Part shown: positions 8,222-63,933 of the stretch, piece after piece | Layout: every line of letters starts with the position of its first letter | Position numbering within the stretch: position 1 is the stretch's first letter | NCBI GenBank assembly: GCA_958009085.1 | Contig: OY253674.1 | Span: forward strand, 1,178,001 to 1,242,000 | Direction of reading: 5' to 3' | From: Protoeuglena noctilucae | Taxonomy: Eukaryota | Length of the DNA stretch: 64,000 bases | Notes under the pieces: generated by a model | What the model was told of the DNA's origin: nothing | The model's input: the letters and a program-made list of their open reading frames with translations, nothing else | Databases searched by the model: none | Translations under genes and position numbers: made by a program

Positions 8222-11200
8222 ATGAAGAGGACGGCGTGTGTCGTGGTTGCATTGGCGGCGGTGACGGCCGCAGGCGACCTTTCGTTGCATCAGCACCCAG
8301 GACATGGCCCGGGGTACGCGCAGCGGGCTCTGCGGGGCTCGACGTGCGACGCGGCCTGCGAAGACGCGCAGCAGGCGGCGTTGGAGTCGCTTTTCCACAA
8401 CTTGGACGGGAGTCAATGGAAACGGAAGGTGATTGTTTGCCGGACGTGGCGGGGCGCTCTCTGTCCCGGGAGGTGCCGTGCCCTGGCCGGTCAGAGGTCG
8501 CTGCAGTTCGCTGGCGCCGCGGGGCGGCTTGGCGATGGCGCGCGACCACCCGATGCGGCTCTTGGACGGTGTTTGTAGAACTCGTTGCGCTTTGATTGCC
8601 TCGTCGCCAGAGCCGGCGAATGCACGCCCTCGGCCTTGCCCGCCGTAGGACGGTTGGACGGACACGAGCGGCCCGTGCACTTTGCAAGGAACAAGCGTGC
8701 CTGCACACTGCTGTTGGGAAGGGTGAGAAGCGGGCGCGATCACGGAATGAGCCGAGGCGCGCGTGCGCCACTGGCCCGACTTCGCCGTCGTTCTGCACCC
8801 TCGCCCACCTCTGCGCGCGCACGCAGCGTCTTGTGCTGCGTGGACCCGACGAGCACCTGCGTCCCTGATAATGCCGTCACCAAACTCGATTTCGCCGACG
8901 CCGGCCTCCGGGGCTCGACGGACGCACTCGCGTCGTCCCTCTCTGCGGTTCTCATGGGGACGCTCATCGTCGTCGACCTCTCCAACAACGACATCACAGG
9001 CGCGTGTTTTGCAAATCGTCATCGTGACATCGCGGGCGCCCGCTCGCCCGCGACGCAACGCTTGTGCGCGATGCCGGGCCCCATCTACGCCTTGCGACTG
9101 CTTAATGTCGAATGCGGACGCGCTCTCCCGCCCCCAGGAGCTATCGCCGCGCTCGATTCGGTATGGTCATCTGCTTCAAAGCTACAGACGGTGTCCATCG
9201 CCGACAACCATATCACCGGGGATGCGTCGACGTCGACGCTGTTCACGCTCGCCACCCTGCTTGACGCCGACGTCGGGAACAACATGCTGACCGGCACCCT
9301 CCCGACCGCGCCCGCGTCGCTGAGGTCCTTCAACGCAGCGAGCAACTCGATTGCGGGGGCCGTACCGCCCAGCCTATTCTGGTGAGGGACGGGACGGTGG
9401 CTGGGGCGTCGATGGGTGCAAAGGTCGCAGGTCGCATCCAAATACCTGGGTTGTGACGCAGTGCTGCAGTGTCGCGGCCATGCCCTGCCTCGGCTGTCCC
9501 CTGGATTGGGGCCCCCTGGATTGGGGCCCCGCTTAACCACACAAAGACGCCGGCAGTGCCTCGCCTAGCCGCCTCGCGCCCTCATCACCACCGCCCCTAT
9601 TGTCTCCCTTCGCAGCGGCGCGATGGAGATCCTCGTGGTCGACGACAATTTCCTCGACTCGCTCCCAGCCGCGCTTCCCTGCAGCGCCAGGTGAGTGGGC
9701 ACTCAGCCGCGTTGCTGGCAGGGTCACTGGCAGCGCCGGCGGCGCAGGAAAGCGCTGGGCGCAGAGGTGGCACTTGGGAGCCCCGCCTTGCCTGCATGTA
9801 CACATAGATGCTTCCTCACACGTGTGCGAGTATCACCCTCTGCTTACCCAGTGTCGAAATCCATCCATCCCCGCAAGCCCGTATGCCCGTCCCACCTCGG
9901 CGCACCCGCAGTGGCTTGCGCGTCCTTTCCATGCGGCTCAACAACTTCGCACAAGACATCCCCGATTGGATGCTCTTCCAGGTGACTGGGGAGACGGGCA
10001 GGGGTGCGGCGGCGGTGTGTGCGGTGGTGGTGGGTGCGGCGGGGGTGGGTGGCGGTGGTGCTGAGTGTTGTGGTGGTGCAAGGGAGACTGGTTGCGCTGT
10101 GCACCATGCACGCCCTACAGGAACATCGCTCCCAATCGCCCCCTCACCCCACGCCCCGTCCCGCCCTGCCCCGCAGCTCCCCGACATCGTCTCCCTCGAC
10201 CTCAGCTTCAATTCCCTGACGGGCTCCATCGTCACGTTCTCCGTGATGCCACACCTGGAGTCGGTCAATCTCATGTACAATAGCCTGGCCGGGGCGCTGC
10301 CCAAGGGGAGCGACGGGCCCTTCCTGAGCACCCTGCTGCTGGTGAGAGTTGCTGCGGTCGCGACTGCCAATGCACAATATGGTACATTAGATGAGACGCG
10401 GAGGTGAGAGAGAGAGGCAGGGGTGTGTGAGAGGGCTCGTTGTCGCAGACCAGCCCCGCAGTGCCCCCCACCACCCCCCGCAGTCCGGCCATTTGCCTAC
10501 TACAGACTGCGACTCTACTCGCTGGCTCTGACTTCGACCCCCCGTCTTCTGCCCCCGCAGTCCGGCAACCAGTTCAGTGGCACCCTGGACGGCGTCTTCG
10601 ACAACTTCGCGCAGCTGACGACGGTCAAGCTCAGCGGCAATGCGCTGACGGGGCCGCTGCCGGCGGTGTTGGGGACGATGCAGAGCCTTGGGCAGATGGA
10701 CTTTCTGGGCAACTTGATGAGGCACGAGGGGCCGCGCAACTCGCGGGGGGAGCTGCTGCCGGAGGTGAGGGGGTGTGTTCGGGACGTGCGGTGAGGGTGG
10801 AGTGCTGTTGGGAGATGTGGTGTGATGGGGGTGTGACGCGCGGTGAGGTTGGCACGCCACGGGAGTTGTAGTGCTGATGACAGTGTGGGTGGCAGTGAGG
10901 GTGGGATGGAGTGGAAGTGGAGCGCTGTGGGATGTTGGGTGCGTTGGTAGCGGTGTTGCTTTCAATAATGAGACGCGGTACATGCCCCTTTCCAACCCCG
11001 CAGTGGCTCACCTACGACAAGTATGCCGAGGAGACGTCTCTGCTGGACCAGGACGACATCCGCTGTCACTCTGTGACACTGGCAGTGAGGCTGAGGATGG
11101 GGTGTGAATGTGACTGTGTGTGGCTGTCGTTCCATTCAGTGTTACCCAGTGTGGGTGTGACTGTGTGCATGTGGCAGTCATTGCAGTCAGTGTCACGCTG

Positions 11201-14200
11201 GCGGTGAGGATGGCTCCCTTTCGTGCTTCGGTGCAGCTTTCGTCTACACAAAGGCATTTCCTACATGTTCATGCCGAACATAAAGATACTATAGAGCATC
11301 TCTCTCCCCCACACAGGGTGGCTTCGCCAGTGGCTTCACGTCTTGGTGGGCCGACCTTCGCATGGACATGAACGCCACCGCAGCCTGCACTGTGTCGGGG
11401 TGCCGGGAGAACCCGAGCCTGGAGGTGAGGGGGGTGACGGTGATGGGATGTGGGGCTGGAGGGTGAGGTGGGGTGACCATGTGGGAGGTGAGGGGGGCGG
11501 CAGCGAGGGTGGCGTGACGATGCATCGCATGTACCCCACGCAGCCCCGGTCTGCCTCATCCCCTTGCTCCACTTAAGCTGGTACCACGCTGCCACATCGT
11601 TTAACCTCTCGCAAACCCTCGCTCTGTTACCCTCGCCCTGCCCCACCCGGTGCCTCCCCCACCCCCGCAGCGCAAGCGCCTGCTGCTCCTCCACGACCTC
11701 CGCGTCCGCCTGGACCCCGGCTATCACCTTTACGAGAAGTGCTGGTGCCAAAGTGGGGCCAAGCTGCGTGTCACGGTGCCAGAGGACACAACGCAGACGG
11801 TGGTCGCGGTGAGAATGGTGCTGCGAGGGGGGTGCTGTGAGGGGGGGGTGCATGGCATGGTTTCTTAACAGCAGGGCACACCCATATGCTGTTTGATACA
11901 TACTGCATCATGCAAGCAAACCCCCACGCTGCTTCACGCAGAGCTGCAAGAGCGAGCAGGGCAACCGGGCGTACGTGGCGGTGGCGGCGGTGCTGGCGTC
12001 AGTGCTGGGGGTGGCCCTGGCGGTGCTCATCGTGGTGTGGCGGTGGAGGGCGCAGGGGCAGAGCCTCAGGTGGGGGGAAGGGTGTTTGTCTCTCTCTGTA
12101 GGCCGTGTGGGTGTGCGTGGGGTGTGCGTGGGGTGGGTGTGGGTGTGGGTGGGTGTGGGTGCGAGGGGTGAGTGTGGGTGTGACCTGTGGGAGCTGCCAG
12201 TGCCTTTGCAGCCGTGCATGGCTATGAAGTGAGTAGCTAACTACTCCCATATCATCCCTCCCACCACCTCCCACCCCCCCAGGCTCCCCGACAGCATAAC
12301 TGTGAATTGCCAACCCCATAGCAACCCCCTTCATCTCCCTCATCCCCCAGGCTCCCCGACAAGGCCGCGACGGTGCTTGTCACCGACATGGAGGGTTCGA
12401 CGGAGCTGTGGGAGTGGAACGCGATGGCCATGGAGACGGCGCAGGCGGTGCACGACGCGGTCATGAGGCGGGTGCTGAGGAAACACCGGGGATTCGAACT
12501 CTTCACCGAGGGGGACTCCTTCTCGGTCGCATTCCACCAGGCGAGTGGGAGGGGGAGGTGGAATTTATGATATCTATGGTATCTATAGTGGTATCTATGG
12601 TGTCTATACTGTACTACCCAAGCGTCACGGCCAAGACCACCCATGCTGATAGCTGAATTGGATGGAAACGGCCTGTAGCGTAGTGACGCTATCAACCGCC
12701 CACGCCCAGCCACCCCCCTCCCGTCACATGCCAATGCCTCACCACCCACCCGCCATGACCACACCCACAACACCCATCACCACCCCCGCTCGCCCCCCCC
12801 AGACCATCGACGCCGTCCGCTGTGCCTGGGAGGTGCAAGCAGCTCTCTTGGCTGCCCCCTGGCCCCCCGAGCTCCTCAAGCACCCGGCCTGCGCCGAAGT
12901 CTACTCGTCAGCCGCGGCAGGGGGGCACGTGCTGTTCCGGTGAGCTGGGCTGTGCTTGCATGGATGGTTGTTAATATAGTAGTACTACAATTTGAATGGT
13001 AAGGAGAACCGCTGTATTCACACCCAACCCCCCACTGCTACCCCCACTACCACCCCCACTGCCACCCCCACTGCCACCCTCACTGCTACCCACACTGCTA
13101 TCCTCACTGCTACCCCCACCCCTTCCCCCCCAGTGGCATCCGCGTGCGCATGGGCATCGCGCGCGGCACCTTCTCCCGCACCAAACTGAACGGCAAGCTG
13201 TCGATGCCTGGCCCCCTGTGCTTCTCGGGCACCGCGCTGCCCCTGGCCACGGCCGTGCAGGCGATGGGTCATGGGGGGCAGATACTGGTGACGAGGGACT
13301 GCCACGAGGACGTGGTGGACAACCTCAGGGGTGAGTTATAGGGGATGGGAGTAGTGATGGAGTAATGAGGAATACTGGGATACTGTACAACATGAGGGGT
13401 GAGTGGGAGACTGGGAGGAGGTCATTGGTTAGTTAGAAGTAGTACCACACACGTACATGCACACTTAGTCATATCCACCATCTCACCCACATTCAACCCC
13501 CTCCCCCCCCTCACAAACCTCGACATCTTCTCCCGCACCCTCTCTCGCAACCACCCAAACGCACTCTCTCACTCTCTCTGCATCGCCCTCATCCACCCCC
13601 ACTTACCCCCACCCACCCCCAGACCTCGACGTCTTCTCCCGCACCCTCCTGGCCGAGCTGCCCCCGGAATTCAAATCCCCAGACCCTGCCACAGCCTCCC
13701 AGCCCAGCCGCACCGCCCACACCCCCGCGATACGCGATTCGGGTGTGAAGGACCTCTCGGTGGCGATCAGCGGGGATGGATCTGCCGCCATCGTCGCACA
13801 CCCGGCATCTGCCACTGTGCGCGGTGCAGAGCAGGCCGTGGGATTCCGGGACCCCACCTCCCGATCCGCGACCGCCGGGCAGCGGCCCTGGGCCGGCAAC
13901 CACCCCCTCCCGCCCCGGGCAGTGCCCTTGTCATCGCTTGCGGTGGCGGGGCCGGGCGGGACCACCCACCGCCGCCCGCCCCCGCCCATCCGCACCGGCA
14001 GTGGGACGTCGTTTGTCGATGTGAGCGACGCCGCTGCGCACGGCAGGCACCTGGCCACCACCCCCCGGGCCTCCTCCCTCTTTGGCCCGCCCGCCAGTGC
14101 TCACGACTCCGCTGCCCCCCGCACCCCGGGTGCCAGCAGCAGCCGGCTGGGATTAGAGGCCGCGAGTATGCTGCGGAGGGTGGCGTCGGGGGCTCTCGAG

Positions 14201-17200
14201 TCGCGATCGCGTACCCGCTCGCACTCGCACTCGCTCGCGCAGCCGCAAAGCTCTGGCTTCGCCCGGCCGACGAGGGCAGGGTCGGGGGTGGGGCTGCCTG
14301 AGCCGTCATTGCCGTCTGGGTCGGGCTTAGCAGGACATGGGGATCCTGGTGCGTCCGGGGTGGATGATAGCGGCGGTGCGCTGGCGGCAGTGGCGGAGGG
14401 GCAGGGGGCGGAGGAGTGGGCGGGGGCGGGGGTGTGCACCAACTCCAGCACCACCCCTGACCCCGGCTCGCTCACCGCCACGCTGAGCGGCACGCTGAAT
14501 TGGATCGGGCTGACGCTGGGGGTGCGCACGGGGTCCCGCACGCACTCGCGGGGCGCGAGTTCGAATTTCCGTGCGTCGGCGGACGCGCACCCAATCGACC
14601 ACGCGTGCTGCAGCAAGGTGGTGTATTTTGGGGAGCATGTGCTGGTGGCTGCTTTGGAGGACAGCGGGACGGCGACGGGGGGGGAGGGGGGGGCGGCGGG
14701 TGAGTTGGGGTGGCGGGTGGGGGGTGGGGTGTTGTGGGGTTGCATGTGGGGCGGTTGGGTGTGGTGAGGCGGCGGGTGAGTTGCTGGTGAGGGGGTGGGG
14801 CGAGATGCGCTGTGTGGGACTGGTGGGGTTGCGGGCGAGATGGTGAGGTGACATGTGGCGGGGAGTCTGGGACTGTCTTTGCCACAGGTAGCTGCGTTGG
14901 TAGCAGCGTTTGTAGCTGGCATTCGCCACATCCCTCCTTTTCACCCCACCCCGCAGGCGCCACCCCCGGCGCGGGCTCAGCGACCGCCGAGGCCGCCCTC
15001 ACCCGGCTGCTGCGTAGGGGCGGTCAGCGGGACGGCACGACGGTCACCTCCGTGTACCAAGTGCTCCCCCGGTGGCTGCTCACCCGCACCGCGCACTTCC
15101 CGCCCCTCTCCTCGACTATTCGGGTGTCGAATGGCTTCCCCCAGGCGCCTCTGGCCAAAGAGTACCTGCGGCAGTGGGCGGGGCTGGACCCTCCGCGGCC
15201 CATACGCGCACGCGTGACCATCTGCTTCGCGGGTGAGAGAGCGTGGGGTGGGACGGTATGGGACGATATGGAATGAGATTGGATGGGGTGGGGTGGGTGG
15301 GTCACCCTCGCATCTCTACCACCCTTGCACCTGCCCATCTCTCCATCCTCCCGCAGCCATCCACGGCTGAAAGACCGTCTCTCTCGCCACCCCTTACCTC
15401 AATATACCCTTGACCCCCCTCCCCCCCCCGCAGCCATCCATGGCTGGAAGACCGTGGCCGGCCGCTCCTCCGACCCCAACGTGCTGGTGTGGATGTTCAA
15501 CAGCACAGGCCGGTCGCTGCTGTCGCTGTTCGGGGGCACCGAGTGCCGGCAGAAGGACGAAGTCATGCTGCTGGCGTTTTACACTGAGAGGGGGGCCATC
15601 GAGTGGGCGCTCATGCTGGGCGAGATGCTGTCCTGCGTGGGGTGAGATGGGGAGCGTGTTGGTGTAATGGGGAGCATAGTGTATACTAGACACAGGCAAC
15701 AATTCCAAAGACGAGTGCATGGACCAGTCAATGTTGTCAAGCAATCACCACCACCTCCAATGCCCCACAGATGCCAATACACATGCACATGCGCATTTGT
15801 TACCCCCTCCCATCCCCACCCTCACCCACTCCATGACACCCCCATCTCCCCATCTCCCCAGGTGGCCCCCGGATCTCTACCGCGGCCCAGAGACGTTCGT
15901 CCGCGGCCCATTCGGGGCTTCCCACGCACTGAGGGCCAGGGTGGGAATCTACGCCGGTGTGCCGTCCGACCTCACTGTGCACCCCGTGTCAGGTGAGTTG
16001 ACATGTGGCGTGGATATCGAGAGTTGTTTGTATGGAGATCACGACTTGAGACAAATCGTTCTCTTACACCGCCTGTTACTCTGACAGCCCCCTTGTCCCC
16101 ATTTCATGTCGCGCCGAGTGGAGTATCCCATTCGTGCACTCACCCCCACTCCCTCTCCCCCCCAGGCCGCGCCGAGTACTTTGGCCCCGTGGTCAACCGC
16201 GCCGCCCGTCTCTGCCATGGCCTGGTGGCGCCTGGGGAGGTGCTGGTAGAAGAGACGGTGGCCAAGGCGGCGATGGCGGCGTGGGGGATGGGGGGGGTGG
16301 CGAGCGTGGGGGAGGGGAAGGGGAGCGGGGTGGCGGACTCGCGGTGAGGGGTGTGGGAGTGGGGTGGTGGCAGAGTGGGGTGGGAGTAGGGAAGGGTGGC
16401 AGTGGAGTGGGGTGGTAGCAGAGTGGGGTGGGGTGGTTGGTAGTGTGGTTGGTAGAGTGGGTTGGTAGTAGGGAAGGGTGGCAGTGGGGAGGGGTAGCAA
16501 TGGAGTTGGGTGGTTGGTAGATGGGCAGGGCAGAGAGGGCAGTTGTGACAGCATGGCATGGCAGCGTTTGCACCCACGCTCACCCCACTCTCAACCCCTG
16601 GTACTTTACTCTCACCCCCCCACACACATGCAGGCCCCGCACCCCCCAGCCCACATCTCTGTCCAGTGACCTCCGCCACGTGGCACTGCGGGCGGCCGCA
16701 ATCAAGTCCGGCCACTCCGCCACGTCCCCGCAAGCGTCCCCCGACGCGCGCGCCTCCTCCCTCGCCCACGCAAGCGCACCGCCCCTCCCCACTGACACCG
16801 CCCAAGCTGCCCCGCCATCACCCCATGTACCGCCCGCCTCATCACCGCCCCTCCCCAGCCCCACCGCTGCGCTTGACCTCACCCCCGCCCTCGCCGCGAC
16901 TGCCCCGCTGCCGCCCTCCCCGGGGGCCGGCGTGGCTCTTGCCCTCGACACCGCTGTGGACGAGAGCGGTGCGACGGGCGACGTCGCCTTCAGCCCCACC
17001 GCCGCTGCTGCTGAGCGGCGGGCGTGGTTTTCTGAGGATGTAGGTGGTGGTGGTAACGGTGGTGGTAATGCCAGCCCCACAGCGGCGAGGGCGGGCGGCG
17101 GGGTGCGCACATCGATGGCGGGGGGGCGGGGGGCGGCGGGCGGCAGCAACTGGCTCCGGCGCATCTCCCAGTCGCTACGCCCCAACCCCGCCTCGCCCCA

Positions 17201-27849: not shown

Positions 27850-30800
27850 TCAAGCAAACGCGAGGTCCTGTGGCCACTTGGGGAACACGCGCTTGTAGAG
27901 GGCCATACAGACGGTGTCGTGCTGGTGGACGGGGCCGTCGAAGATGCACTTCATGAGGCCGTGCGTGCCCACCGGCTCCCGGATGCGGCCGTGTCGGCCC
28001 ATCTTGGTGTGGAGCTGCACGGGGCGGAACCATCGCACGTCCTCTGCGGGGGGTGGGGGGAGTATGGTTATTACATGATACCTTGTACCATATAATATCA
28101 TGATTTGGTAAATATATGATTACCATTATCATGACTGATAGTTATTGTCGTGTTTTATACGTTATCATTGTCAATTATGCCATCAGTGAGTCGTTATTTG
28201 ACTCAAATGTTTGCTGTTATGGCTGTAACGCACCAGACACAGATAGAAGTAATCAGTAACGACCACAACCACATTAACTCGCCTGGGTTGTGGAACATGT
28301 ACTTGACCACGGCTTTGGCTTTGTGTGATCGCATGGGCACGCCCGTGAGCACCGCCCTCTTCACCACCACTCGGTCCGGGTCGCAGCTCTGCAGGTGACC
28401 GGACGCCGCCAGTGCGGGGGGGGAGCCCGCGTGGGACCTGGGGGGGTGGGGGGTATGGGTGGTGGTGGGTGGTGGTGTTGATAGGGGAGCGGTGGTGGGA
28501 GAGTGGTGGTGATGTGGCATGGAGAGCGTATGGGAATGTGGGATGGGTAGTTAGTGATTGCAAAGCACATGGCATGGGTAGCAGAACATGCACACCCCCA
28601 CCCCCAATCACACCCACACCCACACCCACACCCACACCCACACCCACACCCACACTGCTACCCACACCCACACCCACACTACTACCCACCCCCACACCCC
28701 CAATCGCACAGCCACTCACTCAAACACCAGGAGCGGCACGGGCGGGTAGCAGATGGGCGCGTAGACGGTCGCGACGGCCGGCCTCCCATGTTGCAAATAC
28801 CTCTCCATCTTGTGCTTGTCTGCGCCGTGCTCATCGGTGGAGAAAATGGGGCGGGCGGGGAAGGAGCGGTGGCCGGAGACGAACAGCAGGGGGTCCTTGT
28901 TCCTGTGTTGGGAAGAAGACATGTGGGGGAGGGGTGAGAATTTGAATGTGGGAAATGCTACTATGAAGACATAGATGGATAGCGCATCTTTGTACACATG
29001 AGCAGAGGCACATGTCCTTTCGAACGAACTCTGCAGCTTGCATCCACCCTCTACTGCACCCAGTAACTGCCAATCATCACACCGTAAAGCACGATCGCAA
29101 ACCCCGCACCACATTTCCACACATCATCACTCGCCCCACTCACTTGATGGGTGCGTGGTAGTCCCCCCTCTTAGTGACGGCGTAGTTAGCGACCGACAGC
29201 TTGCACTCGTGTTGCAGGTTGCCAAACACGCACAATGGGGGCGCACTGCCGGACGCAAACGCGTCTACCCTCGCTCTGATGGACGATATTTGAATTGAAG
29301 ATAACCCGTCCAGGTATACCCTCACGTACGCGTTTGGGGGGACGCCCTCAGCATCGACGCCCACGGACCGGGCGGACTCGAGAGCCTTGCGCATGGTGCG
29401 ACTGCGATATGGGAGGGGGGGGTGGGGTGGTATGGGTGGTGATATGGGTGGCAGTGGGGGCGGCAGTGGGGGTAGCAGTGGGGGTGGTGGTAAGGGTGGC
29501 TGTGAGGGTGGCAGGGAGGGCGGCAGTGGGGGTGGGGATGAGGGTGACAGTAAGGGTGACAGTTACGCCGGCAGTCAGCTGTACATACACCCCATTTCAT
29601 CCCAACCCATCCAACCCATCCCATCACCCATCACCCCTAATCTCTCCCCGCATCTCCCTTCCCCGTCACCGGAACGACGTGAATGCGAACACGCGCGCGT
29701 ACTCCCTGGGCAGCGACTCTCTCGCATCCCACGGCGACAGTCGGAAGGACTTCAATCCGCGGTACTTCTGAAGGCGAATGCGGCCGGGGACGTCGGGGGG
29801 GAGGTCGATCTGGGGGGGAGAGGGGGGGGGTGTTGTTATGGTGGTGTCGATATCAGTCTGCAGACACGAGCAGTGCCACACTGCCACTTGCAGCAAAAGA
29901 AGCAACACGCAGTTATGATAATATAATGCTATCATTAATCACAATACCGATAACCAAACCCGCACTTTGTCACATAACCACCCACACCACTCGCCTCGTC
30001 GGGGTGCGCCTCCTCTTCCCCCTCTGCCGCCTCCCCCCTCGCCCGCCTGGCCTCATCCTTGTGCCTCTGCAGAGCTGCCAAATAGTCACCGCGACCCTCC
30101 TCGTTCATATCATTATCGTTATCCCCATCATTATCGTCATCCCCCTCTGCCCCCATCCACGCATCGTCCCCATCGGTGCCATCATGGGCAGTGCCTGAGA
30201 AGGGGGAGTGAGCCGAAATGAGATGTGAGGAAACGAATATCATGCTTTTGATGTACAGCATCGCCATTGTGTAGTTGAGAAAAGCAGCGTAGTGTATGCC
30301 GCAACCCCCACCGCCCTCACCTGCCCCGCCCGCTCCCCGCCCATCTCCGCTCATTGCCTCGTCATCTGCAAATGCGAAGCCTGATCACATCATCCTCCCC
30401 TTCACTCCCCACCCTCACTTCCCCCCTCCCTCCCCACCCCTCCCTCACCTCCCTCCCCCTCACTTCCCCCCTCCTCCTCCCCACTCCCCCACTCGTCATC
30501 CTCATCAATCCACGCCGCCTGGTAATCGGACACACCCAGTCGGCCCCTCTTGCCACCACCACCGTGCCTGGCAGCGGCAGCATCCACCTGGGGAGAGAGA
30601 GGCGAGGAGATGTGACAGTGTCAATGGATGGGGCATGAATGAATGATTGTCTTTACACCTTGTGTATTACACTGACCTCCACCTCCGTCATCAAAACACC
30701 CACACTCACACCCCACCCCTCACCTCCGCCTCCCTCATCTCTTCCTCAGTTGGCCACGTCTGTTCCCCCGCCAGAGTATCGGGGACGTTCTCCCGAGTCA

Positions 30801-42277: not shown

Positions 42278-44350
42278 ATGTGGACCAACGAATTTCCGTG
42301 GTACTACCTCCAAGTGAATCCCGTGACCGGAGTGTGGCTGTTCGCGCGGTACACCCTGCTGGTGCAGAGGTGAGGCGCGCGCGCGCTCGATGCGTCGCCC
42401 GGCGTGCCTTCGCGGATACAGTTGCGTTCTATACGTTTACCGCTACTCGCCGCATCGAGTCCGCGCAGGCAGCGATGGACGCTCGACAAGATGTGGGAGA
42501 TGAGCCAGAACATCGACCCTTTGTACGTGGCGCCCGCGGCGCCCCCGAAGGAGCGGCGCCCTATGCGCAATCCCAGTTTCCAGAACTACATTTCCCGCTT
42601 CACGGGAGGGGCCCCGCAGCACGCCAAGGCCCCCAGCATCGGGTCGGTGAGGGGCGAGGCTAACGCACCCGCATTTGGTGGTCACTCACAAAACGTGGCC
42701 ACCCCTCCTACCCCGCTCGCTCGCGTGGCTTCACTGCGAGTTCATATGGTTCATGTGTTGCCATGTTGTGCTCTTGATGCAGTCCTTTCGCTTGCTCGCT
42801 CTCGCTTGCCAATCCAAACACTACCCAACCCCACTCCGTTGCGCAGCCTGGGGAGGGTTTGGGCAGGGAGGACACGGCCAGGTCGGAGAAGAGCGCAAAG
42901 CCATCTATCGGTGAGTGGTTTGATTGCTTGTTATGGATGGGGCATTGCTTTTACATGTACAGACTGTGACATGGGTCACTGCATCGCGTGACGTGCAGAG
43001 CACCAATGTGATGACTCTGACTTGTGTTGCTTCCCCCGCAGCTGAGATCCACCGCAACGTGCTGTCGCGCCAGGCCATCTTCCTGGTGAGCGCTGGGGCG
43101 GGCGTGATGCATGGCGATCACAACTCGCCGTCCCCAACCACCTCTCCATCTCAGCAAGCCAAGCACCCCTCCCACAACTGAAGCTCCACCTCACCTTATC
43201 CCCACCCCATCCCACCCCACCCCCCCTCCCTCCCCAGGCCGAGCAGGCCAAGCACCTGGGCCGCAACTTCCGCATCATCCAGTCCGCGATCGGCTTCTTC
43301 CTGACTGGCATGGCCATCCAGTACCTTTACTTCGCCATCGTGGGCGCGACCGAGGACGAGGCCGTGGTGCGGTGGATGAACATCGTGGCGCAGGTGCTGG
43401 GGATGCTCGCCATGGCGCTCGCCGCCTTCGAGATCCTCACCTCGCACCGGTGAGGGGGTGGGTAATTCTGGGGTTGATTGTTTTGGGAGCGGTACGGGGG
43501 TGACTGTTGTGTGATGAGCGCATTGACATCTCACTCACCCCACCCACCCCACCCCAGTCCCCCAGTCATCCATTTGTGTATTAAACCATTCAACATCTCA
43601 CCCCCTACCCATATTCGCAGTCCCCTGGTAAGCGAGATGACTTTCCAGGACCGATGGGAGCGCAACATGGTGAAGCTGGGGAGGCTGCCGGCGTCGTGGG
43701 GGGACATGCTGAGGAAGAAAGAAGCGATGGGTGATGCCAACTCTGTTAATGCCACTGCCGCTGCTGCGGGTGTGGGAGTGGGGGCGGGAAGTCCCACGAT
43801 GTTCGCTCGGCACCACGACCCCGGTGCTCATACGCATACGCTGCATCATGGTCACGCGGGCGCGTCTGTGCCCGTGGCCGTCCCCGACTCCAATGGCATC
43901 GCCAGCAGCAGCGGGGGTGAGGGCGCGGGTGCAAGCGACAGCAGCAGCGGGGGTGGGAGGGCATGCTTTGGGTACGCAGCCACCCTCCCAACTCCATCTC
44001 TGCTGCACCACCCATGCTTCACTCAATCCCCTTTCCCATCTACTCTGGCTCACTCCCCAACCCCAGCCCCACCCTGACACCCCTCACCCCCACCCTCACC
44101 ACCCACCACCCCCACCCCCGCAGAGCCCGTCCTCCTCGGCGTCCGCTCCCACAGCGCCGCGGACCTCGCCCCCTCCCGGCCGGCAGTCGCCTCCGCCGTG
44201 GAGCTGGGCGCCACTTCGGTTCAAGCAGTGTCGGCGTCAGATCTGCCAATGGCGCCATTGGCGGGCGGCCCTGGGATCTCCGCGGAGGAACCTGCCGTGC
44301 CCTCTGGCGTCTCGGTCCTTTTCGGATTGGGATAGGGATGGGTCTGTGAG
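42278..44350 (+). CDS. Hypothetical membrane protein (two or more TM helices); 3' end uncertain
   Basis: Spliced frame MWTNEFPWYYLQ..|..WTLDKMWEMSQNIDPLY..IIQSAIGFFLTGMAIQYLYFAIV..VAQVLGMLAMALAAFEIL. Confidence 0.6.
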
Positions 44351-46156: not shown

Positions 46157-49100
46157 ATGCCTCCCCGGGTGAGCGCGCGAGCTGGGGCCCTGGCGTGAAC
46201 ATGTTGACGTGCGTCCCGCGCTCGACCGAGGCTCCGGTCGGGGCGCGCCTTTGCCTGCCACATCTGCAAGCCGGAAGAAGTAGGGAGGGTTGAGTGGGCC
46301 TCTCAGCGATGGGCCCGGGGAGGCGGGGGACGCGAACGAGAGCATGTCGGACGTGGTTCCCGCCCTGCGCTCGCGTTCGCCGAATGCGGGGTCGTTTACG
46401 GAAACGTGGTATCTATGTCACTCACGCGACGTGGCCCCTCACGGGTTCCCACGCGCCCTAGGGCCGCCCGTGGACTGCCCCGGGGCGCGCATGTCGACGA
46501 CGAGCCCGCGCCGTGCCTCCGCAGAGGGACGGGGGAAAGGGGAAGGGCGCGAAGAAGGAGGAGGACAATTTGAACGAGGAGGAGAGGCTCAGGCGCGTGC
46601 AGCGACGGCGCGGCGGTCGGGAGAGGCGGCGTCGCGACGAGCGGGGCGCAAACATCGCCCCCTCCGCCTCCCCCTCGCTTTGCAGGCGCAATGTCGAGGA
46701 GCGTCGCGTGCAGCTTCGCGCGCGGTTGCTTCGTGAGCAGGAGTACGCGCGCGAGCACGCGGCGAAGATCAACACGGCCTGGCGCCAGCTGCTGCGGAAG
46801 GCCAAGGTGGAGGAGCTGCGGGCGGAGATCCAGGTGCTGAGTCAGGGCCACGAGAGGGAGATCGACCGTCGCGATGCGGTGATCCAGATGCTCGACCGGG
46901 ACCTGGAGGACGCGGAGGACCAGTATTTAACGGCGCTGCGGGGGCACATGCAGGCGAGGGGCGTGAGGGGTGGGGTGGAGTGAGGGGGGGCACATGCAGG
47001 CGAACGACGGTGGCGGTGTGGTGGTGTGAATGAGAGTGGCACATGGCGCGTGACACACGCACAGCGCCCCGCATTGGTGGCACTCCGCCCACCTGTCACC
47101 CACCCCGCGCTGCTCCGCCTGTCCTCGCAGGCCCTCGACGCTTTGCTGGACCTGCAGGAGCTCCGCATCCAGAAACTGGACAAGGAATTCCGAGAGAACC
47201 TGTCCATGGTGAGACTGGGTATTATACTGGCATGGATGTACAGTGGACGTGAAGGCACAGGCGGCGTGCGTGTCGCTGTGTGTGTGTGCTGCCACCGCCA
47301 TCCTAGACCGGCACAAGCGGAGTGAGCGTCGTCACTCCCAACCCGCACCACCCTGTTCCCTCTCGTCATATCATCGTCTTCACTCATCCCATCTCACCCT
47401 CTCCCCCCTCATCACTCCCCCAGACGGAGCAGGAGTTCGAGTCCGAGCGCCAGGAGATCGTGGCCACGCACGTGCGGCAGAAGAAGGACCTGCAGGACAT
47501 CATTGTGGCCATGGAGGCGGAGTTCGCCAGGATCGCGGCGGAGGCGGAACAGGAGTTCGAGGCGGAGAGGACGGGTGAGATGGGATGAGGGGGTGGGGGG
47601 GGGTGGGGGGAGGGGGATTCAGGGAGAGGGGTGAGGGGCACGGGAGTTTGAGGCGGTGAGGACGAGGACGGACGGGAGGGTGCACTGAGATGGGAAGGGG
47701 TGTTGAAGTCCCAGTTGTAACACCACCCCTTCTCTCACCACCCTCAACCTTCTTCATCTCCCCAGACATCAAGAACCGTGCTCAGGAGGAGTACCACGTG
47801 ACGCGCATCCAGCAGAACAACGCCATCGAGGACTGCGAGGCGCACTACGACAAAATGTACAAGACGTACATGCAGGCGAGATGAGGGAGTGGGATGGGTG
47901 CTAGACGTACATGCAGGCAGGAGGGGAGGGAGTGGGATGGGGTGGGATGCACATGCAGCGGGGTGACTGATGATATGGGGGTTGGATGTTCACATACACG
48001 CATTCCCACTGTCCGCCCCCACCAGGCTTCACTCTCACACCACCCTCAACCCCACCCCCACCATGCCCCCCTCTCAAACCCCCCTCACCCCCTCTCACTG
48101 TCCCCCCCACTCAAACCCCCCTTTCCCAACCGCAGTCGAGCGAGAAGGACGCGGCGGACTTCCAGCGACTAGCACAAACGGACAAGCAGGACGCCAAGGA
48201 GATTGAGCGGGAGATGAACCGACTGGCGCGCCTGCACCACGCCGTGCAGCACTGGCGGCTCAAGATCGCCAACAACGAGGAGGAGTGGAGCGACCGGAAC
48301 GCGGCGCTGAGGGACGAGAAGGACGTCATGACGAGGCACTATGCCAAACTGAAGGGGCAGATGGACCGCTTTAGAAGACAGCAGCAGTCGCGGCTCAAGG
48401 AGCTCAGCCGGCAGAGCGGGGCGGCGATGGAGGCGCTGCGGACGAGGATCGCCGTGGCGGAGAGGATTTTGAAGCTGGCCGAGTTCTGCAGGAGGCTCGA
48501 GACGGAGGCGAGGGGGTGGGGGGGTGGGGGTTGCATGGGGGGGTGTCGGGGGTGGTGTTAGGGGTGGCATGGGTAGTGGGGGGTGTAATGGGTGTTGGGT
48601 GTTGCAATTCTTACACCCGCATGCTGCATGGGGTGTTTGTGAGTGGGTTGATGGCATGGACAGTATTACTGGCGTCGTCGTGCGACCGGTTCACGTCACG
48701 GCGCACTCGCTCCGCAATGATCAATGACTACTGCAGCATGTCGTGACAGCCTCTCGTCTCGCTTTCCCCGCAGCAAGAGAAGGTGCTTCCCTTCTGGAGC
48801 CCCGCGGAGGCCCTGGCGGACGAGCTGCTGGAGGGAGACCTGAGGGAGGCACAGGCAGAGGCGTCGCAGGTGAGGGGAAGGTGGGGTAGATGAGCGAATA
48901 AGAGGAGTGCGGAAAGATGGAAGCAGAGGCACCGGCGGAGGCGAGGATGGTTAAATGACGGCAGGGTACTGTTCAGGTGGTGGTAGGGCACAGCGATCGT
49001 CGCCCACTGTCACACCCACACCCCCAGCCGCCGCACCCACCTCACGCTCACCCCCCACCAACCCCAACCCCACTACCAACCACCCCCTCCCCCCAGGCCC

Positions 49101-49987: not shown

Positions 49988-52900
49988 ATGAGTTCGTCAA
50001 TAAGAGAGGACGACGCGGCGCCGGCCGCGGTGTCCGGCGGCGCAGCGACGCAAGCGGGGAGAGAACCGGGGAGAGCGGGCGCGATGCCCCTCTGGGTGTT
50101 TGCGCTCGCGGCCATCTTCGGAGCGCTCAGTTTGTGGTCGCTGTGGGAGCAGGATATCTGGTGGCAGGTGATGCCGGCACCGTCGTATCGCGCCGCATCG
50201 CTGCGCGGCCAGCGCACTCTGCGTTGTTGGCCCCCCCTACCCGTCTTTCCATCGACGGGGCGGCTGCGAGAGGCCGCCCGGGCCCTTAATCGCTGCCGAT
50301 TCGTTTTATGAACCCTCCGCCGTCCAATGCCGTCGCTCCGGACCCCTCCTCGGCCCGCCATGGCGTGAAAAGGTTTGCCCGGCTCGCCGCTCGCCCCGCA
50401 GATCCGCGCGGGGGAGCACATCCTCGACACCGGGACCATGATCGTCGAAGACGAATGGTCGTACACGGCGAGTCCCCTCCCGCGCCCGCCGTCGCCAGCA
50501 CCTGCCCCGTAAATGCAAAGCGCGCGTCTTTGATGCGTCATTCGCGCCGCCCGCCCTCCCCGCAGGTCACCGGCGTCGAGTGGAAGAACGTGCAATGGCT
50601 ATCCACCATTCCCATCGCCATCGTCTACCGCCTCTTCGACGTCCCCGGCCTCATCGCCCTCCGCGGGGTCACGGCATCTCTCGTGGTGAGGCCATGTCAA
50701 TGGCAATGCTTACAAACGCTGCATAAGCACTGACCTGCTTGCGTTCGCTGACTCTGAGCATGCATGCATCCACCCTCACATTTGTTTTAACTCACAAGTC
50801 ACTCTCCGCACGCTTTCGTTTCATCCGCCACTCCACCCCCGCACCCTCCCCTGCATCTACCTCTCACCTCCTCAACCCTTCCCCCTCCCCCCCAGTTCCT
50901 CGGCCTCGCCCGCACCGCCTTCCGCACCCGCATCCCCGGCCCACCGGGGCCCTGGGACCGATCCGCATGCGCCCTCGTCCCCGCCCTCGCCATGCCCGCC
51001 ATCGCATTCCGCGTCCAGATACGCAGCGAGTTGTTCGTGATCGCCGCACTGGCGTGGACCGCGTCGATGATCGCAGGCGCACCCCCCGCCCCGCCCTCGC
51101 CCCCACCCCCGCCCGCACCAGACGGCGTCAAACTCGCATGGACGCTGCTTGCGGGGTCCACCCCCCCCGCACCCCCACCCGCCCCACGCGCCCCGCCCCG
51201 CCGCCGCCCCGCTCTGCTTGCGCTGTTCGACGGCGCATCGCCACCCGCCCCGCTCCTCCGCACCGCCCTCCCCGCCGCTGCTGCCATCGCCATTGTCGCC
51301 AACCTCCACTTTGGCCTGGTGCCATTCGCGGTGGCACTGGCCGGATCCTGGTGCCTGGGTGACTCTGGATTGACGAATGGGTTTCACCGACTGATGGTGG
51401 CAGCTGCCATGCCACTGGCAGCCGCGCTCAGCCCCCACCCGGTCTACGGGTGAGAGTGTGCGGGGGTATGTGTATGTGTATATGTATGTGTGGTGAAATA
51501 CTTACTTTACATATCTTGACTGCTATGCCCTTTCCATTGCACCTACACACCGACCCAACTACAACCCGACACTCATCCCACCACCATTATTTACAGAACC
51601 CTGCTCCCCCCCCCCAGTCTCCGTTTCATCTGGCACCACGTCTTTTACTTCCACGACAAGCTGCTGTACAACCCCGACCACCAGCGAATGACGTGGGGTG
51701 ACCTGCGCCATGCGCCCCAGACACCCATTCTGGCGGCACTGGCGGTGGCGGCGCTGTTTACCACAAGGCGATCGGACAGGTGAGGAGTAAGCGGGGGGAG
51801 AGAGAGAGGTGCGAATGCATAGCCGTGCCCGCAACCACACCCCAATCACCCACACCACTCCTCATCTCCCACACCCACACCCCTCTCTCTCAGTCCCCGT
51901 GGCTACACGTGCCTCCCCATCACTAACACCCACTCCTCAAATCATTCACTGCCCTCACCCACACCCACACCCACACCCACACCCACACCAACACCCACAC
52001 CCCCTTACTCTCATCTCACTCATTCCAGTCCCCGTGGCTACGCGTGCCTTCCCATCGTCTTTGCCTCCCTCGCCGCCTGGTCCCTGGGGTGCGCAGACCG
52101 CACCCGAGTGCTGCCATTCGCCATCATCTACGCCACGCCACTCGCCACTGCAGCTGCCGTCAGGGTGAGGGAGCGATGGGGTGGGATGCTATGCGATGCG
52201 TCAATCATGGGTGCTCGACAGATGCGTGCATGCCACGAGTGCCATTCACAACACCAAAGACCACACCTCTCTCTTACCTCACCCCATCTCTCCTCTCCTC
52301 TTCTCCCCAGCTGGCACGTGCCATCCAAACCTCATGCACCTCACCCCATCATCTCACCCCACCCCTCCACCCCTCCTCTCCCCACTCAGCTGGCGCGTGC
52401 CATCCAGACCCTTGGCTTGGAAGACCCCTCCGCCCCCTCCGCCCCCGCCCCGCCACCCCGCAAGCCCCCCCGCCACGCCCGCTCCCTCCTTGCCACCCTG
52501 AGGTCGCTGGTTCGAATCCCATCGGCTCACCTGGCCGCCCTTTTCGCCACCGCGCCCCTCCCCTGGGCCGGCATCGTGGAGGCCGTGTCTAGCTACGTCG
52601 CAGTGACCGAGCATCTGCCCAAAGGACTGGTCATCGCACCCCGCGTGTGGCCGGTGGAAACGGTTCGATTCCTCCAGAGGTACCGGGGCAGCGTGCGGCC
52701 CCACATCTACCACACCAACGACTTCGGGGGTTACCTGGTCTACCATCTGCAAGACTACCAGGCGAGTGTGTATGGGGGCGGGGGTGGTTCATGGAGTGGT
52801 GCAAATGGGTATGGGTAACATTAGATATGTTATATGGTTTATAGCAATGATATAATAACACCCACTAACACGACTGCTATTAGGCAATCGCCATGTCTGT

Positions 52901-53467: not shown

Positions 53468-56400
53468 TTCACCTCCTCACGCAAACGCGACACGTGGCCC
53501 TCCAACTCCGCCACGCGACGAGACAGCTGCGGGGGTGGTGAGGGGGCGATATATGGGAGGGTGTTTATTATTATAATGAAAGCACCGATGATAGCACAGG
53601 GCAGACGCGACTGACTGGATGCAGTGGATGAGATCATGACATGGGCTTGACAGCAGCATTGCAGTTGTTATGACTATGTCATAAACACCCCGTTCCCATG
53701 CCCACACCCCCTTCCCCCCCTCACCTCCCCCACCCTTATCTCCGCCCTCTCCCTCTCCCCCACCGCCCCTCTCCGCCGCCCCCCTCGCCTCCCCCCACCC
53801 CCTCTCCGCAGCTTGCAATGCCTGGCTCAGCCTGGATGACTCGCGGCCCCACAACGCCTCCGCCTCCGCCCACGCCTGGTCCCTGAGAGAGGGACAGGGG
53901 GGTCGAGTCAATGATGATTGATGCTTATGGATGATTGATGATGGATCTGTCACAACACATGCACCGACATAAACCTAAACTAAGTATCGACAAACACCGC
54001 ACGCATCCCTGCGTGTCGGATGACCATCACCGCACCGTGCATGCATCGCATACTCACCATGCCCACAAGACATTCAAAGCCACAAACAAACAACCCTCAC
54101 CTGTCCGCCAGTGCCCCCTGCAGTCTCTCCACCTCCTTCGCCATCTCCCTCGTCGCCTCTGCCACTGCATCCGCATCCGCACCCGCACCCGCCCCCTCCG
54201 CCCGTGCCTCTGCCTCACGCAGTGCTGACCGCAGCTCTGCCACCTCCCTCTGCCAAGCATCCTCTGCCTGCCACGACGCAGCGCTGGGGGGGAGCGGTAG
54301 GTGAGGGGGAGGTGAGGGTGGCAATGGGGGTGGCAGTGGGGGTGGCAGTGGGGATGGTGATATAGGGTAACTGTGACCACCAACCACTCCACTGTCCTCT
54401 CTCTCTCTCATCTCACCGCACTTGTCCCCATCTCCGCCACCACTCTCTCCCTCTCCCTTTCCACCACCGCAGCCCTCGCCTCCGCCTCTGCTGCCCTCTG
54501 CTGCGCCACACGCGCCCTCTCCCTCTCCGCATCCAACAACGCACGCAGCTGAGAGGGGGAGCATGGAATGGGATATGATCATGGCATTGTTATTGATCAT
54601 CTACATAGATGGTTATTAATGGCGATACGGCCCCTCTCTTAACTCCCCCACCACTCTCCCCCACCCCCAATCTCTCACCTCCCCCACTTCCCTCTCCCTC
54701 CCCACCGCCCCGCCGCCGCCTCCCTCGCCCTCTCCACCTCTGCTTTCATCGCAGACAGCTCTGACGCCGCACGCTGGTCGGCAGCACGCTTGAACTCCAC
54801 CATCTGTGGAAAGAGGGAGTAACGGACAGCGATAACAACAGTAAGCTGCCATGAGATACGATAGTTAGTAACTATCGCAGGTATGGGATCATAACAACTG
54901 GCTAAATTGACATCGGGATTGAAACATACTTTCTACACAGCCACCCCATCCCCCTCACCTCTCTCATCGACTGCTTCAGTCTCTTGTACTTCCCTCCACC
55001 TCACCAATCGACGCCTCTCCGCCTCCCACCCCGCAACCGCCACCGCACGCCCACCGCCATCACTCCCACCCTCACCAGCCCCATTCCCATGCACACCACT
55101 TGCACCGCCCTCCCTCTTGCTGCCAGCCCCGCCGCTCCTCTCGCCCCCATCCCCATCCGCACCCGCACCCACTGCCACCCCACCACTCTCTCGCATCGGT
55201 GTGGGTGGCTCTGCGTCTGTTGACTCGGCAGCCTGGGGTGGTGCGCGTGTGGGAGATGGGGAGGGAGCCTGCGTGTGCAGATAGATAGGAGAGCAGTGCT
55301 GAGTGTGGCGGGAGGAGTGGATGGCATAGCCTAGCCACAACCCCACTCCCTCACCCTCACTGCCGCAGCCGCTCTCACTGTCACCCACCCCACTCTCACC
55401 TCCCCCTTCAGCCCCACCACAGCCACTCTCACTCCCACTCAACCCACTCTCACCTCCCCCTTCACCCCCACCGCTGCCGCCGCCACTTTTGCCTCCAGCG
55501 CCGCAATCACCGCCGCCTGACGCTCCACCTCCTCCTCCAGCACACGGACCTGATAGGGAGGGTGTTAGAACAGTGTGATGGTTTGTCCAAACTCAATTGC
55601 ACGCACAAAGCATCGCCCCGCCCATCTTCACTCACACCCCAACCCTTCCTGCCCATCCCCCCACAGCACTCATTCCCTACAGCACCCTACATACCCCCAC
55701 CCAACCACACACACCCCCACTCCCACCTCGTTCCTCCTCTTCTCCGCCGCTGCCCTCGCCATCTCCTCGTTCACCTCCCCCAGCCGCGCCACCTCCGCAC
55801 GCAGACCGGCCGCCTCCACGGCAAGCCTCTCCAGCTGACCCTCACGGGCAGCGATGACGCGGTCACGGTCCGCGAGAGCTAGTGAGAGACGGGACACCTC
55901 CTCAGCGACACTTGCGACGTGCACAGTACCTACACCATGCCCGCTGCTGCTGTCCCCTTGCGCAGTGCTACTCCCGGCCCCATCTGCCACCACACTCCCG
56001 GCCCCATCTGCCACCCCACTCCCGGCCCCTTCCGTCTCCCTCGCCACCTCGCTTGCACCCGCATCCACCTCCACCTCCAACTCCACCTCCACTCCCGCAC
56101 CCTCATCTGCACCAAGCCCCTGTGCACCCGCACCCGCACCCTCATCCGCACCCAGCCTCTGTGCACCCTCTCCCCCCTCAAACCCTAGCCTTGAGTCGCC
56201 GCTCACTTCGCCCTCGCCCTCACTCCCCTCCATCTCTCTGCCCCCCGTCGCACTCGCACCTCCCTCCCGCTCCTCTCCGCTCACCCCACCCCACCCATCC
56301 TCTATATTTCCACCCATCCCGACACCCGCCACCTCGGCCCCTTCCCACCCCTCCCCATCTCCCGCAGTGCTCTGCCCCACCTCACTCTCCACCCCACCCT

Positions 56401-61528: not shown

Positions 61529-63933
61529 TCACCCCCCCCTCGCCCTCTCCGCGTCCCTCGCCGCGAATGCCGCCACCAGCACCGGCACTGCGGTGGGTAG
61601 CTGCAGTGGAGGGGGACACCGCGTGAGTGACCCCGCCTCAAAGTGCCACGAGCCGCCCTGGTGGGAGAGGGTGCGGGGGGAGAAAAGCCAGTACCTGGGG
61701 GAACAGGAGAGGGAAGGGGGGTGCTAAGAGGGTTGGGGAGGGAGGAGTGGGGGTGCGGGTGGGATGTGGTGTTTTCACACCGCCAATCAAGAGTCCATCT
61801 CCTGCCACACCTGCTACCCTGACACGTACCCCATAACTGCTCGCGGTATTTCATATACCGGATATCTCACCTGGCGTTCACTGCCCTGGCGTGCTGCACG
61901 CGGCAGCAGAGCACCGGGGCACGCCTTCCCTCGGCGTGTGCCACCCAGGTGTGGCCGCAGACGAGGGCACGGCCGCGCACCCGGAGCGTCGAGAAGAGGA
62001 CAGAGTGGGTGCGACGGAGATGACGGGCACTGGCACTTGCACTGCCACTCTCACCCGCACCCGCACCTGCACCCTCACTGCCACCACCCTCGCCACCACC
62101 ACCGCCACTCTCACCAACCCCCCCCTTTGCCAGGCACACCTCGGACCCGGTCACCCTGGCGATGAGGGGCCCTGGGTTGCTGGGAGTGCCCCAGAACACA
62201 TCGCACTGCACGGCACGCGTGGGGTATGCAACAGTCACGCATCTATCAACAGATGAGCGCAACTGTGACCCCATGCAGCGGCATACGGTCACCCCACTCC
62301 CTCACTTCCCCACTCCCTCACTCACCACATGCAGTGGCATGCTGTCAAACCCACTCCACTCATCCACTCCCACTCACCACATGTAGTGGCATGTTGTCCA
62401 CTCCCACGAAAGGCGCCGCCCAGGCATCCAACGCAGACAGCACCCGCCCCAGCCACCCATGCCGCTGTCGGGACTCATCACCACCCTCCCCCTTCACCCG
62501 ACCACCACCACCCTCTGCCCCTCCCCGCACATCCTCTCCCCTCCCCAACCCCTCACTCCCCTCCGCCACTCCCCGCACACCCTCTCCCCTCCCCACCCCC
62601 TCACCCCCCTCTGCACCCCCCCGCACATCCCCACTCTCCCTCTCCACACCCCCGCTCGGCAGCTCTCTCGCTCCCCACGTCAACTCCCCCCCCGCATGCC
62701 ACGCCGCCCCCTCCGCCTCCCCCAGCCTCCTCCGCACCGCATGCGCCACCACCCGCCCCGCCAGCTCCAACTCCAAACATTCCCTCGTATCCCTCATGTT
62801 GCTGGCATTATCCCTTTTACTTCTCACATCTCTGGCGTCCCCCACGCACCCCGGCAGCGAGGCCTCCCGCACCGCCCCCAGCGTCGTGCGCCCTGACACC
62901 AGCTGCCAGAGATCGCCAGCAGTGGGGGAGGTGCGCGACTCCGCCTCGAAACCATCTGAGAGAGATGGGGGAGAGATGGGATGGGTGATATGCACAGACT
63001 GGGTGCGCAGGGGCGAAGCGTGATGTGGGAAGGGGTGGGGAGGGGCGCACGATGGCACATGGGCAGAGGGGCGAGTGAGGACAGCACTGCTCGGCTAATC
63101 AAGCGCAGTAATGGGGTCCAATGGTAGGAAGCGTCGCGTCTCACCTGGCAGCTCCCCCGCTTTCAGGTGCGATATGTCTGGCCCCAGGTATGCGTGGCGC
63201 ATGGCACCCCACAGCGCAGCCACCAGGGCATCGGGGAGAAGGGCGCCGATGACACTGCGACGGGGGGTGGGTGGATGACGACTGGCGACAATGATGGACA
63301 AAAATAGACAGATGACCCCACGCAGTCAAAACTGGTCAACCAGCAGTGCCCTCACAGCCCCCCCCGCACTCACCCCACGTCCCTCGCATCTTTCACAAAC
63401 CCCACGTCATTCCACCGCACTGCCCGGGCTGGGCTCCTGGGCCCCTCCACGCCCGCCCCCTTCTCCGCTCGCCAACCCCGCGCCCAGTCCAGCAACGTCG
63501 CCTCCTGGGCCCCCTGCGACGTTGAAACCAAGCATGGTATTCATACATCACAGCAAATAGCCCTGCCTGTCCGTATGCTACCGCATTTCTACTCCAAAGC
63601 GCCCCTCACCTCCGCACGCTCCCGCCGTCGCGCGGCCCATCGGTCCAGGCCATCCAATCCCCATCGCCATGGATGCTCCTCGAATCCCTCCGTGTGCTCC
63701 GTGAATTGGACGGGGCCCCGGGGCCGCCGATACACCCCGGCCGGGCCAAATGCGCGGCCGCGGTGGGGAGGGGCGCGATGAGCCGACCCGGGCCCGGCCG
63801 ACGCCTCGCCCGGCGCACGGTTGTCGCCATGACGTCGTGCGTATCTCCCTCCGATGCCTCCCGGACCGCCCGCGCCGTCCCCTCTGCGCAGGTGCGCGTC
63901 GTAAGCGCGGCGCGACACAGGGCTCCCCAGCAC
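61529..63933 (-). CDS. Hypothetical multi-exon protein, possibly 5'-partial
   Basis: Open frames bounded by GT-AG sites (approx. 63611-63933, 63146-63259, 62378-62957, 61529-61694) separated by typical G/C-polarised introns. Confidence 0.5.

Follow-up and report, generated by a model that had tools for sequence, protein, structure and literature searches.

In this article I describe a recurring feature of the genes of the marine alga Protoeuglena noctilucae, as seen in one 64-kb stretch of its DNA (contig OY253674.1, positions 1,178,001 to 1,242,000 of the forward strand), which is the whole sequence analysed here, is referred to below as the window, and supplies all coordinates, counted from its first letter. 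In about one intron in five of this GC-rich alga lies a short stretch that repeats the end of the neighbouring exon together with the splice site; such a copy is here called an echo. These echoes are probably the relics of ordinary small tandem duplications that have been filtered by selection and have since decayed at different rates in their exon-derived and intron-derived parts.

Exon-end copies in adjoining introns

The window (~65% G+C, with a gap of 200 Ns at 53268-53467) holds intron-rich genes, as judged by Pfam and by tblastn with three homologues of RNA polymerase III subunit 2 (RPC2). Protein homology, together with frame-consistent GT/GC...AG pairs, set the boundaries of the RPC2 exons, and the introns fixed in this way served to train an exon-chaining predictor built on codon log-odds and splice-site matrices, which recovers the RPC2 exons and matches the listed RNA-contig joints (43621-43916, 44124 and 48507/48774). 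The predictor also made errors, among them a wrong RPS19 acceptor and numerous spurious single exons, and so a set of 13 gene models was curated, whose 80 introns have a median length of 196 nt. Since the predictor is blind to repeats, the junctions that carry repeated pairs were predicted independently of them and the agreement between repeat edges and predicted junctions counts as independent evidence, with protein homology backing the junctions in RPC2.

Direct-repeat segments scoring at least 18 at offsets of 12-400 numbered 65, against 0, 0, 3, 3 and 0 in five block shuffles. For the census of junctions, each query spanned one junction, taking 8 nt from the intron and the 40 nt of exon next to them (upstream exon at donors, downstream exon at acceptors), its score was the best ungapped match within its own intron, and a score of at least 16 was called an echo. 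By this measure echoes occur at 17 of 160 junctions (11 donors and 6 acceptors), all in different introns and hence in 17 of 80, and at 5 of the 36 junctions of the homology-supported RPC2 gene alone. When the same queries were run against non-adjacent introns, scores of at least 16 arose in 2 of 12,372 comparisons; reverse-complemented queries found nothing in their own introns (0/160), exon tails set against the preceding intron and exon heads set against the following one yielded no echoes, and exon interiors at least 40 nt from a junction gave 0 hits in 156 tests over 32,023 nt.

A preliminary description of this DNA had claimed that introns hold copies of the adjacent exon boundary, and 11 of the 12 pairs that it named are real direct repeats, 10 of the 12 sitting exactly on junctions. 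The pair 36361/36424 has to be given up, as it matches at only 17 of 28 positions, scores 8 in the junction test (p=0.19) and does not rise above background, and the triplet near 62.3 kb lies outside the curated models. Seven echo events are new to the list (five donor, two acceptor), Tandem Repeats Finder (TRF) adds the duplication at 11419-11490, and two or more adjacent copies in direct orientation are found within one intron-exon pair. The genes of the window include the following.

~8.7-18 kb, forward strand: LRR/guanylate-cyclase gene (Pfam)
27.8-32.3 kb, reverse strand: Tsr1/BMS1-like gene (Pfam)
33.3-40.6 kb, forward strand: RPC2 gene (tblastn, three homologues)
44690-45416, reverse strand: RPS19 gene (RNA contigs, database protein P0121)
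46.4-49.8 kb, forward strand: DRC1/NYD-SP28 flagellar gene, below DRC1-like (Pfam)

The events are listed here, with the exon-intron boundary of a donor marked by ^.

34795..34826, forward: RPC2 donor source copy, comprising the end of exon 34502-34825 (tblastn) and the first intron base; donor CAG^GTGAGA
34883..34914, forward: RPC2 donor echo of the preceding, 32/32 identical, 88 nt downstream in a 198-nt intron; site CAG^GCAAGG
39010..39041, forward: RPC2 exon end (39035; tblastn), first unit of a four-unit array; donor AAG^GCGAGT
39090-39121, 39169-39200 and 39245-39276, forward: three RPC2 donor echoes at 88%, 97% and 100%, period 76-80 nt, AAG^GCGAGT intact in each
39518..39548, forward: RPC2 exon end (39553), with its echo at 39635-39665 (29/31) followed by a 1-nt deletion and an intact GTGAGG
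35996..36021, forward: source of an RPC2 donor echo, exon ending at 36026, echo at 36133-36158 (23/26) with the donor equivalent lost; tblastn aligned the echo to the same residues as the true exon copy
38822..38839, forward: RPC2 acceptor-side echo, 18/18 to 38899-38916, 8 nt inside the exon that starts at 38891; flank similarity p~0
46940..47029, forward: DRC1-like donor-side tandem duplication, period 46; 46940-46957 against 46986-47003, 18/18
47862..47941, forward: DRC1-like donor-side tandem duplication, period 41-43; 47862-47877 against 47903-47918, 16/16; the intron part GAGGGAGTGGGATGGG is repeated too
47552..47573, forward: DRC1-like exon end (47574), echo at 47643-47664, 20/22
43903..43955, forward: donor echo at an offset of 36 nt, true copy 43903-43919 and echo 43939-43955 match at 17/17; of the two donors, the upstream one is joined in an RNA contig
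12276..12361, forward: cyclase-gene acceptor echo 12276-12293, true copy 12344-12361, 18/18; exon start 12351
13517..13648, forward: acceptor echo 13517-13542, true copy 13623-13648, 25/26; AA in the echo against AG in the true copy
15350..15455, forward: acceptor echo 15350-15378, true copy 15427-15455, 27/29; exon start 15434
14692..14783, forward: G-rich donor echo, true copy 14692-14707, echo 14768-14783, 16/16
11419..11490, forward: tandem duplication of period 38 (TRF), beginning 6 nt before the donor of exon 11317-11424; its ungapped junction score of 12 is under the threshold
51891..52056, forward: acceptor echo 51891-51921, true copy 52026-52056, 29/31; exon start 52029; (CACACC)n in the spacer
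52308..52410, forward: acceptor echo 52308-52331, true copy 52387-52410, 22/24; exon start 52390
55366..55472, reverse: tandem duplication on the donor side with a period of 54, in which exon tail and GAG^GTGAGAGTGGG occur twice, both intact; the 55446/55392 copies of this minus-strand gene match at 26/27, extending to 53 nt at 89% at an offset of 54
62263..62398, reverse: three copies (62371, 62319, 62263) ending TG^GTGAGTG, period 52-56, in an uncertain gene model; 62371/62319 match at 26/28 and the third copy (62263) at 75%
30412..30474, reverse: low-confidence donor echo (30457/30412), 18/18, G-rich and of low complexity, at a weakly supported Tsr1-like exon

A probable origin in small tandem duplications, selection and decay

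Tandem duplication had already been suggested as the source of the echoes, and the suggestion is supported by the exclusively direct orientation of the copies and by the duplication of the intron part of the unit in 6-11 of the 17 events. For the latter, similarity between the spacer and whatever follows the echo was scored, with equivalent positions of other introns as the reference; this position-matched test was relied on instead of global gapped alignment of whole units, which is too crude, its free end gaps diluting the identity of the intron part. Six of the 17 events have an intron part recognisable at p~0, and the number rises to 11 at p<0.1, where about 1.7 would be expected by chance. 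Units measure 36-137 nt, and TRF aligns the whole unit in six junction events; furthermore, the four units of 76-80 nt in the 39010 array have both flanks and core in common, and at 51891/52026 the intron tail is duplicated and a (CACACC)n array in one unit takes the register from 96 to 135 nt, which shows directly how an intron part loses its alignability. Unit length is a multiple of three in 5 of 17 events (manual count), as expected for units outside the mRNA. The introns have also been lengthened, as had been proposed, with a median of 225 nt for those that carry an echo and 185 nt for those that do not (one-sided Mann-Whitney p=0.0044).

The history that I consider probable would begin with tandem duplications, in units of about 36-137 nt, arising all along the genes of a repeat-rich genome. 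A duplication contained in an exon would alter the protein and be purged by selection, and one contained in an intron or spanning a single junction could persist, since the mRNA stays the same provided that splicing still uses the outer site; with introns as short as these (median 196 nt), over half of the harmless duplications would be expected to span a junction. I infer both this selective filter and a faster decay of the intron part, which, being G/T-rich or C-rich and laden with mini- and microsatellites, would be scrambled quickly by indels and array growth, while the exon-derived patch, complex in sequence and with an exon partner frozen by selection, would stay recognisable far longer. 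The end state would be a short remnant, copied from the exon end and including the splice site, within the neighbouring intron; echoes reduced to the patch would be the more numerous because the exon-derived patch outlives the low-complexity intron part, and old intron-only duplications would by now be invisible or have turned into G/T-rich or C-rich intron minisatellites.

The preliminary description had gone further and proposed a duplication process biased towards junctions, and here the whole-unit duplications do not support it. When units of the observed sizes were placed uniformly over the 13 models in a simulation, 55% of the mRNA-neutral duplications spanned exactly one junction, simply because introns are only ~200 nt long. 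The TRF repeats with a period of at least 30, a wholly alignable unit and a position inside the models comprise 6 junctional, 5 intron-only and 1 exon-only case, the last with a period of 30, a multiple of 3. Junction and intron-only classes are equally detectable among such whole-unit events, and junctions show no excess over geometry.

Several observations weigh against ordinary duplication followed by filtering and decay. The exon-derived part measures 8-36 nt in 17 of 17 events, although uniform breakpoints predict an exon part longer than 36 nt in 58% of detectable cases; the corresponding P(<=36 | >=8) is 0.415 per event and, as a rough figure, ~3e-7 for all 17, with TRF stretching the exon part to 44 nt in one low-confidence case. 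Similarly, the exon core is preserved better than the flank by more than the factor of two that a frozen partner would give: the cores are identical at 355 of 395 positions, and the flanks, in a rough gapped alignment, at ~41% compared with 36% for unrelated intron pieces. The 34795 pair combines a core of 32/32 with a 56-nt spacer without significant similarity (p=0.16), and two intronic units of the 39010 array differ at 1 of 33 core columns and at about a quarter of the flank positions (manual reading). In 6 of the 17 events spacer similarity goes undetected (p>0.1), and it is the geometry of the copies that argues for their tandem nature. Except in RPC2 and at a few RNA-supported junctions, the models are ab initio and some are wrong in detail, and the sample is a single 64-kb window. 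Slippage in the flanks, selection against long exon-like inserts, gene conversion or patch-copying repair are each possible reasons for the short exon part and the well-preserved core. These two features exceed neutral expectation and might also mean that splice junctions act as hotspots of duplication or repair in this GC-AG-rich genome, or that intact decoys are kept by conversion or by selection for splice-site choice; both readings are unlikely, and the specific forms that such ideas can take deserve to be weighed one at a time.

A mutational process coupled to junctions, making copies preferentially at exon-intron boundaries, would account for exon-side breakpoints that all fall within 8-36 nt of the junction, and a candidate mechanism exists in breaks or fork stalling at the G-rich head and the C-rich tail of an intron, followed by microhomology-mediated template switching; introns in the window do begin with G-rich tracts and finish with C-rich ones. 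Junction windows are also about eight times richer in copies than intron-internal ones (17/160 against ~6/466, with short-period arrays excluded and sorting done manually). However, this excess can be explained by the longer survival of exon-derived sequence, the whole-unit duplications divide into 6 junctional and 5 intron-only cases where 55% junctional is expected, and no pattern of microhomology at the breakpoints is apparent by eye, all of which leaves junction coupling improbable.

I am similarly doubtful that some echoes arose as templated patch insertions, of the kind made by polymerase-theta end joining, in which 16-45 nt would be copied from a nearby junction into a break in the intron. 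Such an origin would suit the sharp edges of identity on both sides of the echoes, and also the 6 of 17 events in which the spacer is unlike the sequence beyond the echo (p>0.1), among them the perfect 32-nt copy at 34883. Templated insertions of this type occur inverted as well as direct, so that inverted copies would be expected, yet none is seen at 160 junctions; nothing would oblige the template to take in the junction, yet 156 tests of exon interiors are empty; and for 30 nt beyond the 34795 pair the sequences look homologous apart from one indel (manual reading).

Decoy splice sites and the rest of the window

The preliminary description had expected echoes to create decoy splice sites, and such sites indeed look intact in about 6 of 11 donor echoes (from the table and my own reading) and in 5 of 6 acceptor echoes. 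The intact donors include all three AAG^GCGAGT sites at 39090-39276, GAG^GTGAGAGTGGG at 55392, GTGAGG at 39635 and CAG^GCAAGG at 34883, the last identical in form to the real donor at 40260; five of the six acceptor echoes retain a strong C-rich tract and an AG, the sixth being 13517 with its AA, and the site is gone from about 5 of the 11 donor echoes. RNA use can be read at one echo junction among the 15 of 64 joints and 32 of 560 pieces listed, and there the contig joining 43915 to 44123 (record 21 of run X9) uses the outer donor and not the echo donor 36 nt downstream. In RPC2 the protein homology runs on from the outer splice sites, and decoy sites are presumably mostly unused. As a separate observation, a second run of the predictor picked the echo donor (exon end 43952) rather than the RNA-supported 43916, 36 nt away and in frame, which means that echoes can mislead annotation.

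Decoys bear on a further reading, in which the exon-like core is actively maintained, either by gene conversion limited to the island of homology or by selection for decoys acting in splicing, where they could provide extra binding sites that aid weak GC donors or serve as sites of regulated unproductive splicing. Even when two intronic copies are compared, the core is preserved far better than the flanks; most decoy sites are intact, including all those of the 39010 array, and GC donors are frequent (5 of the 12 introns used for training, all from RPC2, and 17 of the 57 predicted ones). Set against this, core identities of 88-100% fit neutral decay across a range of ages, donor sites and one acceptor AG have been lost, and the flanks are slippage-prone low-complexity sequence, and I give active maintenance little credence.

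An artefact of assembly can be dismissed outright, for although the window comes from an assembly, has a 200-N gap and contains repeats that break short-read graphs, the unitigs of the independent DNA run X1, which end at repeats, include one of 116 nt (34797-34912) and one of 263 nt (39012-39274) that run from copy to copy with 0 differences and at the single-copy depth of their flanks, runs X1-X3 contain 1.00 of the sampled words of 34001-44000, and 0.94-1.00 of sampled words are present in four runs of the cultured organism and in several metagenome runs. The absence of the copies from raw long reads had been named beforehand as a finding that would undo the pattern by showing an assembly artefact; the unitigs of run X1 bridge the copies. 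Window DNA is present in public marine metagenomes and metatranscriptomes and in runs of one cultured organism.

Should the pattern hold across the genome, there would be thousands of intact decoy splice sites 36-137 nt from real ones, a natural test bed for site choice by a spliceosome that uses many GC donors, and a measurable case of intron growth by small duplications. GC-AG introns are common here, and the GC donors among the 12 homology-fixed RPC2 introns and the 57 predicted introns always have the context (C/A)AG^GC(G/A)AG. Many GC donors together with ~65% G+C make the window resemble Emiliania huxleyi, for which 56-65% GC-AG junctions and heavy intron retention have been published (PMC4028052).

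For annotation, echoes may mislead gene prediction, and the deposited RPS19 model in this window reads through an intron. The only database protein identical to the RPS19 exon is P0121, a 131-aa model that continues into the intron after ...GMIAK and is probably a misprediction at a non-GT donor; the true joints according to the RNA contigs are 44919>45032 and 45220>45342. An RPC2 exon searched against protein databases gave no identical match, the best being 94%, and the large cyclase exon, queried against longer proteins, matched nothing. The one relative found among metagenome contigs has 68% identity in the query exon; this 6.2-kb contig (L001, 71.5% G+C) holds RPC2 at 2931-6191 as one uninterrupted frame of 1087 codons, 99.9% identical to P0009, and is either transcript-derived or from an intron-poor relative. 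Its uninterrupted frame makes it uninformative on orthologous introns.

Other observations concern repeats, splice sites and RNA contigs. At 5587-5639 a 26-nt unit (GAGAAGGTGAGCTTCTCGTGGATGCT) stands twice in perfect tandem; it contains a donor-like AAG^GTGAGC and sits amid long open frames on both strands, and a perfect 27-nt direct repeat at 53058-53128 (offset 44) lies just before the N gap, outside confident exons. Two in-frame candidate donors 9 nt apart, CAG^GCGAGG and GGC^GTGAGG (46953/46962), lie where the first large DRC1 exon ends. In three runs, RNA contigs diverge from the window at identical places (47455, 51207 and 45687), the 20-letter continuations at 47455 and 51207 having 0 matches in the window, and these contigs may be paralogues, alleles or chimeras. 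Many introns also contain arrays with a 12-nt period, of the GGGTGGCAGTGG type or its complement, with the G-rich form on the sense strand of the gene:

13029-13117, 18054-18111, 28591-28699, 29426-29575, 54305-54364 and others: 12-nt-period intron arrays

Comparison with known systems

Echoes had been put forward as a route to intron gain or sliding, and nothing in the window speaks for this, all of them being internal to introns. The Rogers-type model of intron gain resembles the present case in that tandem duplication supplies the splice sites. It differs in predicting that the 3' end of the intron equals the upstream exon tail and that its 5' end equals the downstream exon head, a geometry (exon-tail echo abutting the acceptor, exon-head echo abutting the donor) found in 0 of 80 introns. 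Introner elements are intron-creating transposons that obtain one splice site from a target-site duplication, and they share with the echoes a duplicated stretch at a splice site; the introns here, however, form no sequence family, and blastn of 15 spacers against the 64-kb window, which looked for a dispersed repeat family, returned only microsatellite and chance-length matches. Furthermore, target-site duplications of transposons are far shorter than the repeats of 16-53 nt described here.

Closer parallels come from duplications within genes. Gao and Lynch are said to have described, in 2009, internal gene tandem duplication that crosses the exon-intron boundary. Tandem duplication across such a boundary is also a listed route to the creation of introns in a published account that cites them (PMC2809761). 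In the reported case of a potato RdRp gene, a tandem duplication over an intron-exon boundary created a new intron and altered the transcript (Ma et al. 2016, PMC4974935); the likeness to the echoes lies in a local tandem duplication over the boundary that duplicates the splice signals too, whereas in the alga the mRNA is apparently unchanged and the copy stays as a decoy within the old intron, in about one intron in five. The new introns of Daphnia and Drosophila are, according to PMC2809761, flanked by short direct repeats and read as products of double-strand-break repair (Li et al. 2009). The Daphnia type also has direct repeats overlapping splice sites, but these measure ~8 bp or more and stand at both intron ends, whereas the echo is a copy of 16-53 nt inside an existing intron, 36-137 nt from the junction.

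Rogers geometry, Daphnia-type flanking repeats and introner elements thus all fail to fit the echoes. The preliminary description had called their density unusual, and with 17 of 80 introns affected and no report of pervasive junction echoes at such density in an alga found within the limited literature searched, this judgement stands. The echoes are most likely a known kind of event, tandem duplication over an exon-intron boundary, occurring at an unusually high density.

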